Shown here: one piece after another, positions 4,120 to 55,008 of the stretch
Layout: the number at the start of each line of letters is the position of its first letter
Position numbering within the stretch: position 1 is the first letter of the stretch
Source: a virus
Virus genome (UHGV): UHGV-1430452
Strand: one strand, 5' to 3'
DNA: 64,000 nucleotides
Position numbers and translations under genes: made by a program
The notes under the pieces: generated by a model
What the model saw: only the letters and a program-made list of their open reading frames with translations
Told to the model about the DNA's origin: nothing
Databases searched by the model: none

Positions 4120-4410
4120 TTATTTGTTAAATGTTTTTCTGAGATCGTCCAGGACTTGGTCCTTGTTCTCAGGAAATATAAATGCTGAGTGTGACATCTC
4201 ATTCATTTTATCTACATAGTAATCCTGATTTGGCTGATGTTTTGCCGTAGCGCTCTTCTTCACTTCTAATGCGCACCATTTATCTTTGTAGAGAACTAAT
4301 AAGTCCGGAACTCCCTGTAAATATGTTGGATCATTTTTCAGGACCATACATCCTGGGAATTCTTTCTTAAGCTCTTTGATAAGTTTTGCTTGAAATTTGT
4401 TCTCTAACAT
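4120..4410 (-). CDS. VRR-NUC domain nuclease
   Basis: GVPDLLVLYKDKWCALEVKK carries the PD...E-V-K VRR-NUC signature. Confidence 0.75.
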   Translation of the reverse strand: MLENKFQAKLIKELKKEFPGCMVLKNDPTYLQGVPDLLVLYKDKWCALEVKKSATAKHQPNQDYYVDKMNEMSHSAFIFPENKDQVLDDLRKTFNK

Positions 4411-4437
4411 ATGTATTGCCTCCTCACGTAAATCACA

Positions 4438-4511
4438 TGGACCCTCTGGGATTCGAACCCAGGACCGTCCGGTTATGAGCCGGATGCTCTAACCAACTGA
4501 ACTAAAGGTCC
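4438..4511 (-). tRNA. tRNA-Met (anticodon CAT), 74 nt, CCA not encoded
   Basis: hand-folded cloverleaf: acceptor GGACCTT/AGGGTCC, D-loop AGTTGGTTA, anticodon stem TCCGG/CCGGA with loop CTCATAA, T-loop TTCGAAT. Confidence 0.85.
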
Positions 4512-4530
4512 GCCTATTATAAAGAAAAGA

Positions 4531-4733
4531 GAAAAATAGACTTTTCTCTCATAAAAGGGCAAGAAAATTTCGTGAATAGGGTGTGTACTTTTATATGTAA
4601 ATTTAGATAAGACCGGGAGCCATGAAGGACATCCCGGTACGTTCCAAAAATATAAATAGAAAGAAAATAGACCATCTCTCTATAAAAGGGTCAGAAATTT
4701 TCGTGAATAGGGTGTGTACTTTTTATATGTAAA
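4531..4733. repeat. two copies of a ~72-bp direct repeat (4531..4603 and 4663..4733), each containing a variant promoter-like motif (ctcataaaaggg...ttcgtgaata) and separated by a 7-bp-arm hairpin
   Basis: near-identical strings read directly; hairpin ACCGGGA-N13-TCCCGGT between copies. Confidence 0.8.
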
Positions 4734-4757
4734 TATCAATAAATGAGATCGTATGTA

Positions 4758-5195
4758 TTAATCTATAGCTTCAAAGTGTAGACCTTTCGTATTGTTGTAG
4801 AAATCGTAGTTACAGCATTTACTTATTGTGGCTTCGTTCATTCCTATAGCTTTACTGCATTCCCTGATAGATTCATAAACTTCTCCAGTTTCCACAATAC
4901 GAATCTTTTTATTGCATCGCCTCCTTTCCAAATTATCAATTCTATTGTTACGTTTGTTACCATCGATATAACCGACACATGGTTTTCCTGGTTCTTCATC
5001 AAGAAATGCGTCAGCCACTAGTCGACCAACGCGCTTTGTTATTCTTCTGCCGTTCTCCTTGACCTTCACTGTTTCGTAACCCTTGTTATCAAGGCATGGA
5101 GTAAGTATTCTTCCAGTCTTTGAGTTCCTAACTCTTCCTTCGCTGCTTACCTCATATCCTTCAGCAATATTACTATCGATCCATTGTTCTTCCAT
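4758..5195 (-). CDS. HNH endonuclease paralog with degenerate HNH motif
   Basis: NUMOD4-like YEVSSEGRVRN N-terminus; HNH region GYIDGNKRNNRIDNLE lacks the His residues seen in the neighbouring paralog. Confidence 0.65.
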   Translation of the reverse strand: MEEQWIDSNIAEGYEVSSEGRVRNSKTGRILTPCLDNKGYETVKVKENGRRITKRVGRLVADAFLDEEPGKPCVGYIDGNKRNNRIDNLERRRCNKKIRIVETGEVYESIRECSKAIGMNEATISKCCNYDFYNNTKGLHFEAID

Positions 5196-5206
5196 CGATA
5201 ACCTCC

Positions 5207-5713
5207 TTATTCTACTTTCTCAAACGTGTAACCTCCGCAAGTTCTCAATCTTCCTCGTAAATACTGTGACAACATACTTTGACTTATCCCAAGCGTTTTA
5301 GCACATTCGTTCAAAGATTCATATACCTCTCCGTTCTCTTTACATCTAACTTTTATTCGATTACTTCTACCACCACCATATGGTTTCATCAATCCATCTC
5401 GTATGGCGTATTGCACATTTTCTTTTCTTGTACACCATTCAAGATTATCTGCGTGGTTATTTGTTTTATCTCCATCTTTGTGATGAACATCTAGACCTGG
5501 ATAAGGTCCGCCTAGAAATGCTTCGGCCACGAGAATATTAACTCTCTTTTGAAACCCATATCCGCATCTAGATAATGTTACAGTTTTATAACCTTTGCTG
5601 TCAGTTCCTTGTTTTAGAATTCTTCTAGTATCGATATTCCTAACCTTGCCAGTATTACTAACTTCATATTGCGAACCAAAATCATGCACCGCCTCCCATT
5701 CTTCAACTTTCAT
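5207..5713 (-). CDS. HNH homing endonuclease (NUMOD4 + HNH_3-type)
   Basis: YEVSNTGKVRN and HHKDGDKTNNHADNLEW motifs. Confidence 0.8.
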   Translation of the reverse strand: MKVEEWEAVHDFGSQYEVSNTGKVRNIDTRRILKQGTDSKGYKTVTLSRCGYGFQKRVNILVAEAFLGGPYPGLDVHHKDGDKTNNHADNLEWCTRKENVQYAIRDGLMKPYGGGRSNRIKVRCKENGEVYESLNECAKTLGISQSMLSQYLRGRLRTCGGYTFEKVE

Positions 5714-5920
5714 ATAGCCGTTCTCTTCTAACCATTGACAATAATCATAAAATCATCCTTCTTTCTTATACTCTTTCCATTGCTCCAATGGACTCTTTTC
5801 TTCGAAATCATCAAACTCGTCGTACTCGTCATACATAAACGCATTCTCCTTTCTAAATTTGTTTTAATATAAGTTCGAAAACAAAAGAAGAGGTTGAAAA
5901 TATCAATCTCATCTTTCTTT

Positions 5921-5948
5921 CTATAATAGGGCGTGTAATTTTCGCGAG
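5921..5948 (-). promoter_or_regulatory. conserved promoter-like motif copy
   Basis: plus-strand ctataatagggcgtgtaattttcgcga; family consensus. Confidence 0.55.
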
Positions 5949-6022
5949 CCGACTTATCTTATATCAAGATTCGTAGACAAAAAGAAGAGGCCGGGAATCA
6001 ATCCCGAAACCTCCTCATTCTG

Positions 6023-6406
6023 TTAAACTTCTTCGTTTACTCCGATAGATACTACTCCTCCGATCAACTGATCTGGCTTCCAATCGTAAGCATCACATAA
6101 TTCTTTTCCAAAGTTACCGAGTTCTGATAATGGAACTCCGTCTGTCCAAATATCAAACCATTTATCTGGATTGTGACTCGATACTTCTGTTACCCCTTTC
6201 TGTAATAAAGTTTCTGGTACTTCCAGTTTCTTTAGTTTTGGATCAGGAATACTCGGAAGTTTATCCCAGTCAAAATCCTCAAATTTAGGTTTCTTTTTGG
6301 TTACAACGAATATAACTCCACCAGCTATCACTAGCCCGGTTCCAATAAGAATTTCCTTCTTGTGTTCCTTTACAAATATTTTTGCTTTCTCAAGTTTTTC
6401 TTTCAT
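6023..6406 (-). CDS. membrane protein (127 aa), N-terminal TM helix
   Basis: ORF with SD AAGGAG; hydrophobic GTGLVIAGGVIFVVT. Confidence 0.7.
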   Translation of the reverse strand: MKEKLEKAKIFVKEHKKEILIGTGLVIAGGVIFVVTKKKPKFEDFDWDKLPSIPDPKLKKLEVPETLLQKGVTEVSSHNPDKWFDIWTDGVPLSELGNFGKELCDAYDWKPDQLIGGVVSIGVNEEV

Positions 6407-6447
6407 AGTTTTGTTCTCCTTTCGACTTAAACAATTTTGTTTATTTG

Positions 6448-6474
6448 CATAATAGGAGTTGTTTATTTAGCGTA
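6448..6474 (-). promoter_or_regulatory. conserved promoter-like motif copy
   Basis: cataataggagttgtttatttagcg about 40 nt upstream of start at 6406. Confidence 0.55.
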
Positions 6475-6508
6475 AAAAAAAGGAAAGCCCAAGTCGTTTT
6501 GACCTGGG
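6474..6508 (-). terminator. rho-independent terminator
   Basis: minus-strand hairpin GACCCAGGUC-loop-GACUUGGG followed by U9 tract. Confidence 0.7.
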
Positions 6509-54980: not shown

Positions 54981-55008
54981 CTATAAAGGAGCGTGTAATT
55001 TTCGCGAA
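54981..55008 (-). promoter_or_regulatory. conserved promoter-like motif copy
   Basis: ctataaaggagcgtgtaattttcgcgaa. Confidence 0.55.

Follow-up and report, generated by a model that had tools for sequence, protein, structure and literature searches.

What kind of locus is it in which two tandem HNH genes, a pair of direct repeats and a tRNA gene lie side by side in a phage genome, when one of the two HNH genes has lost its catalytic residues? We analysed such a homing-endonuclease locus in the UHGV virus genome UHGV-1430452, in a stretch of 64,000 nucleotides (nt) that we call the window; the locus, like every gene in this part of the window, is on the minus strand. A first-pass annotation had reported a tRNA gene, two repeats and two tandem HNH genes, and all of them are present. 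Our analysis suggests that the locus is probably a recombination hot spot that holds two genes of the I-HmuI family with opposite fates, copies of a promoter and a tRNA of the Ile2 type. The upstream gene, here called HNH1 (5713-5207; 168 amino acids, aa), has an intact catalytic core and appears to be decaying, whereas the downstream gene (5195-4758; 145 aa) has lost its active site and is maintained.

Sequence comparison revealed that the 145-aa HNH-like protein, which contains CVGYIDGNKRNN and was characterized from its open reading frame (ORF), Pfam and an AlphaFold2 (AF2) model, is related to HNH1 (37% identity, E = 8e-25). It matches the NUMOD4, HNH_3 and NUMOD-like domains, NUMOD4 with 38 bits and the last two below the Pfam cut-offs (HNH_3, 23.9 bits against 24.8). 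In I-HmuI, H75 is the general base, N83 has a structural role and N96 is a metal ligand on the helix of the motif (PMC3384342). The 145-aa protein matches the I-HmuI structure 1u3e in phmmer (E = 2.4e-6), with an alignment that goes no further than the motif's second strand. G-Y stands at the positions of D74 and H75, and about 20 residues (approximately 90-110 of I-HmuI, including N96 and the helix) are without counterpart. In its family the position of D74, the other metal ligand of I-HmuI, is occupied by Gly, Arg, Ser or Lys, and the family alignment (A3) has no alternative conserved acidic or His cluster nearby. The AF2 model, built from 26 sequences, has a predicted local distance difference test (pLDDT) score of 90.5 and no helix after the second strand; in a Foldseek search of the PDB its only significant match was 1u3e (E = 4.4e-10, probability 1.0). 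The NUMOD4 and C-terminal helix-turn-helix (HTH) regions are kept. With the catalytic His, the two metal ligands and the helix of the motif gone, the 145-aa protein is predicted to be unable to cut DNA by the standard mechanism.

The gene is nevertheless not degenerate. The first-pass annotation had called it an apparently degenerate paralog that has lost the histidines of its motif; the loss of the motif histidine stands (G-Y at 74-75), but the degeneration does not, as this gene is the better conserved of the two. The protein database has 15 clusters at 90% identity (P0001-P0015), which are 58-94% identical to the window's 145-aa protein, are all 144-145 aa long and have Tyr at the His position in all but one. 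We also compared the gene with those of related loci, of which L001-L029 are a clade defined by the flanking exonuclease gene and the others came from protein-database and contig look-ups. Between the window and L114, 62 of 438 nt are different, and 54 of these fall on third codon positions, with 51 synonymous and 7 non-synonymous codon differences. Non-synonymous (dN) and synonymous (dS) divergence from the window are 0.023 and 1.25 for L114, 0.032 and 1.10 for L112, 0.043 and 0.70 for L117, and 0.20 and about 2 for L001. The ratio of the two (omega) is approximately 0.02-0.10 over all pairs, against 0.03-0.10 for the neighbouring exonuclease and p96 genes, and the N-terminal, middle and C-terminal thirds of the protein are all constrained. 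These comparisons indicate that the 145-aa gene is under very strong purifying selection and is not decaying. Most likely, then, its product is a site-specific DNA-binding protein that no longer cuts.

Intermediate forms suggest how this state was reached. The forms P0016-P0022, known as protein hits, are 145-149 aa long, lack the helix and keep the His. In L116 the second gene of the pair is a complete 159-aa enzyme at the same genomic position. Because such helix-less, His-keeping forms and the complete L116 enzyme exist, the likely order of losses would be from an active enzyme through loss of the helix to replacement of His by Tyr, with the protein retained throughout; the 145-aa gene would thus descend from an active enzyme at the same position. 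The 145-aa protein is closer (38-49%) to enzymes of about 160 aa from other contigs than to HNH1. A recent tandem duplication as the origin of the HNH pair was considered and is unlikely, given this closer relationship and the 37% identity between the two proteins. A scan of IMG/VR with the 145-aa protein gave no confirmed hit, and the same scan with HNH1 gave only relatives at 40% identity or less over most of the protein.

HNH1, which contains DVHHKDGDKTNNHADNLEW, was identified from its ORF, Pfam, PHROG 59 and alignment to I-HmuI. It exceeds the Pfam cut-offs for the NUMOD4, HNH_3 and NUMOD-like domains (48.6, 47.2 and 37.8 bits against 24.8, 23.4 and 27). Its alignment to I-HmuI (1u3e) is full length (E = 1.3e-17) and reads DVHHKDGDKTNNHADNLEWCTRKEN, with the equivalents of H75, N83 and N96 all present. 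The relatives of HNH1 (P0060-P0078; 47-86% identity) have 193-245 aa, mostly 202-220, and share a conserved N-terminal extension, MYDEFDDFEEKSPLDQWKEYKEEGGFYDYCQWLEENGY, joined to the core that begins MKVEEW. The extension is 40 aa long and acidic, and no Pfam family matches it. In the window, a remnant of it, MYDEYDEFDDFEEKSPLEQWKEYKKEG, is found as a 27-codon acidic ORF (5836-5753, minus strand, by translation) that ends in TGA, after which the frame goes on as FYDYCQWLEENGY to the ATG at 5713. The in-frame TGA lies at 5755-5753 and replaces GGA, the first codon of a conserved Gly-Gly pair; L112 and L114 have GGA at this site. All five contigs from other samples with an identical 168-aa gene carry the TGA. 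Relative to the closest relatives (202-220 aa), the coding sequence of HNH1 is thus incomplete. As the GGA-to-TGA change cuts off the N-terminal extension, the product appears to be limited to the 168-aa core, started at an internal ATG whose ribosome-binding site (RBS) is weak. The gene had been described as intact at first pass, which holds for the catalytic motif and not for the gene as a whole. Recoding of TGA as Gly or Trp was considered as the cause of the in-frame stop and was ruled out: TGA ends 25 of 85 ORFs, reading it as sense gives a coding gain no larger than for TAG or TAA, and neither of the phage's two tRNAs has a UCA anticodon.

Comparison of syntenic genomes also points to decay of HNH1. 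The gene is full length in L112, L114 and L117, is truncated in L113 by a deletion after NLEY, and is absent from L001, the closest IMG/VR relative, in which the ortholog of the 145-aa gene comes directly after a homologous leader and RBS. The omega of the HNH1 core is 0.29-0.38, whereas that of the 145-aa gene is 0.02-0.06 in the same genome pairs. The C-terminal DNA-binding third of HNH1 is 68-72% identical to that of L114, against 91-97% for the remainder, and in P0060 a window-type HNH1 tail is attached to a different body. From the divergence of the tail and the P0060 chimera, we therefore consider that exchange of the specificity module between alleles is indicated. HNH1 is thus, in our reading, probably a free-standing homing-endonuclease gene of the I-HmuI type, selfish and in early decay.

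The locus as a whole varies among relatives. The HNH pair, two promoter copies with a hairpin between them and the tRNA are found in the window, L114 and L115, and L107, L108, L110 and L112 have the pair and the tRNA with one promoter copy. L116 has the pair (its second gene the complete enzyme), two copies and the tRNA; in L117, which has the pair, the contig ends in the promoter region and the tRNA is not covered. A truncated HNH1 and the 145-aa gene occur with two copies and no tRNA in L113, and the 145-aa gene occurs by itself, with one copy and the tRNA, in L001. In the rest of the exonuclease clade, scored for HNH genes and the tRNA, L002-L011 and L014 have one other HNH form and the tRNA, L012 has a truncated HNH-like ORF and no tRNA, and L013 and L015-L029 have no HNH gene at the position and no tRNA, L024 having one about 1 kb further upstream. 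In the sub-clade of L112, L114, L115, L116 and L117, the tandem pair is judged to be a conserved module, which does not have the look of a one-off insertion.

Divergence is also concentrated here. In steps of 100 base pairs (bp), identity to L114 is 96-100% at about 7000-6000 and at 4216-1717, and 65-97% inside 5996-4217. Within this block, 5996-5801 has 69%, 5400-5204 has 68-72%, the 145-aa gene 83-91% and the repeats 65%, and the tRNA together with the first p96 half has 75-90%; values of 65-75% are those of the promoter and leader, the HNH1 tail, the repeats and a part of p96. The edges of the block are sharp. The same pattern, in which nuclease genes lie at the boundaries of genetic exchange, has been described (PMC10448857). 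This suggests that the locus is a recombination hot spot, a homing-endonuclease island beside a phage tRNA. Past or ongoing mobile-element activity, as the first-pass annotation had proposed, is borne out by the variable presence of the HNH genes and by the diverged block at 5996-4217; the two HNH genes do not occur in identical context everywhere, L001 lacking HNH1 and L113 having it truncated. In the interior of p96 (4316-4217, minus strand), identity to L114 jumps from 75% to 99%, which makes this a candidate cleavage or co-conversion boundary.

Two direct repeats of about 72-85 nt, with a period of 131-132 nt, separate the HNH genes from the tRNA. Repeat alignment and a motif scan placed copy B, a variant promoter with leader, at about 4734-4650, and copy A, a variant promoter with a leader of about 30 nt running into the tRNA, at about 4602-4519, both on the minus strand. 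The copies are identical at 74 of 87 positions overall and at 64 of 74 in the core of about 72 nt. Each holds TTCACG-N17-TATRRG, in agreement with the variant promoter motif that had been noted in each repeat. In copy B the -35 element TTCACG is at 4707-4702 and the -10 element TATAGA at 4684-4679; in copy A, TTCACG is at 4576-4571 and TATGAG at 4553-4548 (both minus strand). Copy A leads straight into the tRNA, about 35 nt past the -10 element.

These sites belong to a phage-specific family. A scan of the window for YTCRCK-N16-18-TATRRR found 19 sites, every one of them on the minus strand, which is the coding strand, with 0.87 expected in shuffled sequence. The spacer is 17 nt in all but one of the 19. 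The sites are nearly all intergenic, often after a terminator-like stem and ahead of an RBS and ATG. Their -35 hexamers start, on the minus strand, at 55008, 53066, 52600, 51567, 51254, 51028, 50675, 50245, 48062, 24174, 21009, 18227, 17446, 10099, 8285, 7088, 5948, 4707 and 4576. The canonical form is TTCGCG-aaaattACAnnnCCTaT-TATGAG/TATAGA, which departs from the sigma-70 consensus. Host sigma-70 promoters in the repeats were considered and rejected, since a scan for TTGACA-N16-18-TATAAT over 4300-6500 gave six sites against 6.4 expected, none of them in the repeats. In the relatives a TTCRCG-like hexamer, about 17 nt and TATRRG stand ahead of the (tRNA)-p96 operon, including operons that lack the tRNA. 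On the strength of this conserved arrangement, the repeats can be read as two tandem copies of the putative promoter and leader of the tRNA-p96 operon. As a separate observation, AAAAGTACACACCCTAT, which lies upstream of each TTCACG (within 4734-4679 and 4602-4548, minus strand), resembles the canonical spacer AAAATTACAcgcCCTAT. Each repeat looks like one and a half promoter units with a 23-nt offset, as if there had been an older internal duplication.

The number of copies is variable. Two copies with the same hairpin, in diverged form, are present in L114 and L115, which are contigs of other samples and rule out that the arrangement is an assembly artefact. L107, L108 and L110 have one copy and are otherwise 100% identical to the window in the features compared. 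The 5' end of their single copy matches copy B and the remainder matches copy A; recombination within the shared 23-nt stretch would produce exactly such a copy. Independent tandem promoter pairs are found in L113 (3432-3695, no tRNA behind) and in L116 (4595-4950). This suggests that promoter copy number changes recurrently at this place, independent of the tRNA.

A pattern scan located a 40-nt hairpin element between the repeats (4645-4606, minus strand). It reads GGAACGUAC-CGGGA-UGUCCUUCAUGGC-UCCCGG-UCUUAUC, has the stem ACCGGGA/UCCCGGU and is unique in the window. An exact-pattern scan of IMG/VR found the element in 18 other contigs (L121-L138) as GGAACGUAC-NCGGN-UGUCCUUCGGGC-NCCGNG-UCUUUUU; across these 18 contigs, neither the flank nor the loop varies, and two pairs of the stem covary. 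In those phages it either has a promoter-like site before it and the start of a gene behind it, or follows a skipping-rope RNA. The hairpin of the window is a slightly degenerate copy. In it and in that of L114, the loop is longer by one or two bases and the U-run is interrupted; that of L114 keeps its stem through a G-C to C-G change. At the 3' end, the window copy has UCUUAUCUAAAUUU where the copies of other phages have UCUUUUU; its stem is present. No Rfam family covers the element. We take it to be a portable module that may act in the manner of a terminator or attenuator. That the 40-nt segment between the repeats is a tRNA remnant was considered and discarded, since it gave no Rfam hit at E <= 1 and is a copy of the hairpin instead. 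In single instances elsewhere, the element follows a skipping-rope RNA (RF02924) in L123 and precedes an Abi-like gene in L135.

The tRNA (4511-4438, minus strand) had been named tRNA-Met. ARAGORN reports the anticodon CAT, which is its sole basis for the name Met; the score with Rfam RF00005 is 69 bits. The acceptor ends are GGACCUU...AGGGUCC, and CCA is not encoded. The G1:C72 pair means that the tRNA is no initiator. It has C4:G69 and C5:G68, the pairs by which E. coli TilS separates tRNA-Ile2 from tRNA-Met (PMC11947777). Of its 74 positions, 57-58 agree with E. coli ileX and a plasmid-borne tRNA-Ile(CAU), and 50 with metT and metU. Over the first 44 bases, it is identical to tRNA genes from the genomes of more than 100 Bacillota species. 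In Mesoplasma lactucae and at three other Mollicutes loci, that gene lies in the cluster Arg-Pro-Ala-CAU-CAU-Ser-CAU-Asp-Phe, as the second CAU tRNA of the three. The phage tRNA matches the second CAU tRNA of M. lactucae at 66 of 74 positions, the first at 52 and the third at 48. In this species the third has initiator features (C1/A72, GGG/CCC) and the first resembles metT. The second slot is presumably that of Ile(CAU), as in the published cluster orders of Mycoplasma capricolum and Bacillus subtilis. The tRNA is thus very probably of the Ile2(CAU) type instead of Met. Once modified with lysidine by the host, it would read AUA, a codon that the phage often uses: ATA makes up 266 of the 1082 Ile codons in the long ORFs of the window. 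The best full-length matches of the tRNA (70 of 74) are in Lachnospiraceae, Eubacterium and Lachnoclostridium genomes, which suggests a host range in those groups.

There is a second tRNA in the window (48030-47959, minus strand). It has canonical arms, a tRNA-Lys-like body and a 6-nt anticodon loop, CUUAUA; the loop is the same in the contig of L001 and is CUUAGG in the relative L247. A TTCGCG-N17-TATGAG site lies 4-5 nt ahead of its start. The tRNA might read AUA with a UAU anticodon, or might be defective.

These results can be combined into the following model. Genes of the HNH1 family would spread or persist by cutting relatives that lack the gene and being copied during repair. Such homing would account for both the patchy distribution and the divergent block. 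Through its NUMOD4 sheet and C-terminal HTH, in the manner of I-HmuI, the 145-aa protein would bind a specific site without cutting it. It is possible, and we propose it tentatively, that it is a sequence-specific DNA-binding factor on which the phage depends. As a promoter switch, it might regulate the adjacent tandem promoters of the operon with the tRNA and the YonO-like polymerase; as an "anti-homing" protector, it might occupy the target site that would otherwise be cut by active enzymes which competing relatives encode at this position. The tandem promoters would drive the tRNA and the operon behind it, and recombination between the copies would remove or restore one unit.

Could the 145-aa gene instead be a non-functional relic of the homing life cycle, decaying beside a functional newcomer? 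The lost catalytic His, metal ligands and helix, and the HNH_3 and NUMOD-like scores below the Pfam cut-offs, would fit such a relic, but it is very hard to reconcile with an ORF intact at 144-145 aa in 15 of 15 clusters, with the excess of synonymous differences to L114 (51 to 7; omega 0.02-0.10) and with a confident AF2 model. The gene also persists where HNH1 is absent (L001) or truncated (L113), and the supposed newcomer itself bears a nonsense codon; we regard this explanation as highly improbable. Strong purifying selection is also compatible with an enzyme, and the 145-aa protein might still be a nuclease or nickase with a remodelled active site. The near-invariant Tyr at the His75 position could then serve as the base, as in R.PacI, an active beta-beta-alpha-metal nuclease in which Tyr replaces the His base (PMC3384342). 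R.PacI, however, keeps the metal site and the helix, and the 145-aa protein keeps neither; with D74 replaced, N96 deleted together with its helix and no substitute acidic or His cluster in alignment A3, retained nuclease activity is unlikely. We likewise give a low probability to the idea that the two genes are one co-opted module, in which the dead paralog is a partner of HNH1 in targeting or regulation and the phage, not the pair itself, has the benefit, for example through replication, recombination or the exclusion of competitors. The tandem order, a long form with the N-terminal extension followed by the second gene, does recur in L112 and L114-L117 and, as P0001/P0064 and P0003/P0063, on the contigs of these proteins, at HNH1 identities as low as 52%. 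Yet the 145-aa gene is equally constrained without HNH1 (L001) or with a truncated one (L113), HNH1 has a nonsense codon in the window lineage, I-HmuI acts as a monomer (PMC3384342), and in L116 the second gene is a complete enzyme itself. As for the repeats, an endonuclease-driven segmental amplification selected for tRNA dosage, like that by SegB in T6 (PMC13096335), would account for a homing-endonuclease gene adjoining a tRNA and a tandem repeat and for a repeat number that is polymorphic among otherwise identical strains. The repeat unit, however, consists of promoter, leader and hairpin without the tRNA, and the divergence between the copies is about 15%. The diverged L114 has the two-copy state as well, which is therefore not recent, and L113 has two copies yet no tRNA. 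Such amplification is improbable here.

We therefore return to a hot spot with a decaying homing endonuclease and a retained DNA-binding derivative, an explanation that we consider somewhat more likely than not and against which several points weigh. The omega values of the 145-aa gene are approximate, as dS exceeds 1 in several pairs, although the raw codon counts are unaffected. The conserved Tyr, with the precedent of R.PacI, leaves some room for residual activity of the 145-aa protein. No binding site was found for this protein, GTACACACCC being a candidate only. This element lies upstream of both tRNA promoters and co-occurs with the Tyr-type protein, a co-occurrence that is confounded by relatedness. 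As a statistically unusual operator it was discarded, its count alone giving no support. HNH1 may not be purely selfish, considering that the tandem pair is kept down to 52% HNH1 identity (L116, L117). Either one or two promoter copies may be ancestral, and which way their number went in the lineage of the window is an inference. Finally, the identity of the tRNA is drawn from similarity and from a published cluster order.

Homing-endonuclease islands beside tRNA genes and at exchange boundaries are well known in phages, and in this respect the locus, from a group of uncultured gut phages, is an ordinary case. I-HmuI (PDB 1U3E) resembles HNH1 in its three-part architecture of NUMOD4, HNH_3 and NUMOD-like HTH and in its catalytic residues, and resembles the 145-aa protein in fold and DNA-contact parts. 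I-HmuI is intron-encoded, whereas both genes here are free-standing. The HNH1 family also has the extra acidic N-terminal extension of 40 aa, broken by a stop in the window, and the 145-aa protein is without the general base, metal ligands and motif helix. The phage tRNA resembles bacterial, TilS-modified tRNA-Ile2 in the CAU anticodon, C4:G69, C5:G68 and its greater closeness to ileX than to metT. It differs in being phage-encoded and without an encoded CCA, and is known here from sequence. SegB of T4 and T6, a GIY-YIG homing endonuclease in a tRNA gene region with repeats or amplification nearby (PMC13096335), is also a free-standing gene beside phage tRNA genes and tandem repeats. It belongs to another nuclease family, however, and the repeat unit of the window is without a tRNA.

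The unusual part is the conserved nuclease-dead derivative of I-HmuI. CapR of the Vibrio cholerae PLE satellite is a DNA-binding repressor derived from a homing-endonuclease family (PMC8096241), and thus a homing-endonuclease relative kept for DNA binding and not for cutting, as we propose for the 145-aa protein. CapR is found in a satellite and is related to a domain of another, ICP1-encoded homing-endonuclease family, whereas the 145-aa protein is the whole I-HmuI-like scaffold minus the active site, in the phage itself. The MH1 domain of SMAD has likewise lost catalysis from a beta-beta-alpha-metal fold and kept the DNA-binding surface (PMC3384342), but is eukaryotic and only distantly related. 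At one position of this locus, there is either a complete enzyme or the helix-less, His-less form, and helix-less forms that keep the His are among the protein hits. With such a natural series, exaptation of a selfish nuclease into a DNA-binding protein becomes directly testable. The locus also shows that strains which are otherwise identical can differ in the copy number of a promoter unit. Two automated annotations are also corrected: "tRNA-Met" to the Ile2 type, and "HNH endonuclease" to a protein predicted to be nuclease-dead.

The locus lies between early regulatory genes and an operon of tRNA, nuclease and RNA polymerase genes. In 5'-3' order, its first gene is p127 (6406-6023), closed by a terminator-like hairpin with a T-run (6007-5991; terminator scan and sequence reading). 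The HNH genes are preceded by a phage-type promoter, CTCGCG-N17-TATAGA, at 5948-5920, with a leader to 5845 and an RBS (motif scan and comparison with L001 and L112). Behind the tRNA follow p96, a 96-aa endonuclease-like protein (4410-4120), a PD-(D/E)XK/DUF2800 exonuclease (4105-3479) and a probable YonO-like RNA polymerase of 1056 aa (3475-305), all on the minus strand and assigned by Pfam and PHROGs (93, 3953 and 4291 across the three-gene operon). Among GenBank phages, no close relative was found, only one unannotated record matching with 76% over 30% of the query. The phage, of about 65-97 kb and from the human gut, probably has a Lachnospiraceae- or Eubacterium-like Bacillota host. A PDB sequence search with the 1056-aa protein gave no match. 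Its match to PHROG 4291, "RNA-dependent RNA polymerase", has 1140 bits (E = 0); a DFDGD motif is present, and the HTH at the C-terminal end is similar to region 4 of sigma factors. The protein is probably an RNA polymerase of the YonO-like kind, with a single chain and two barrels (PMC5467207), and it may be the reader of the unusual promoters of the window.

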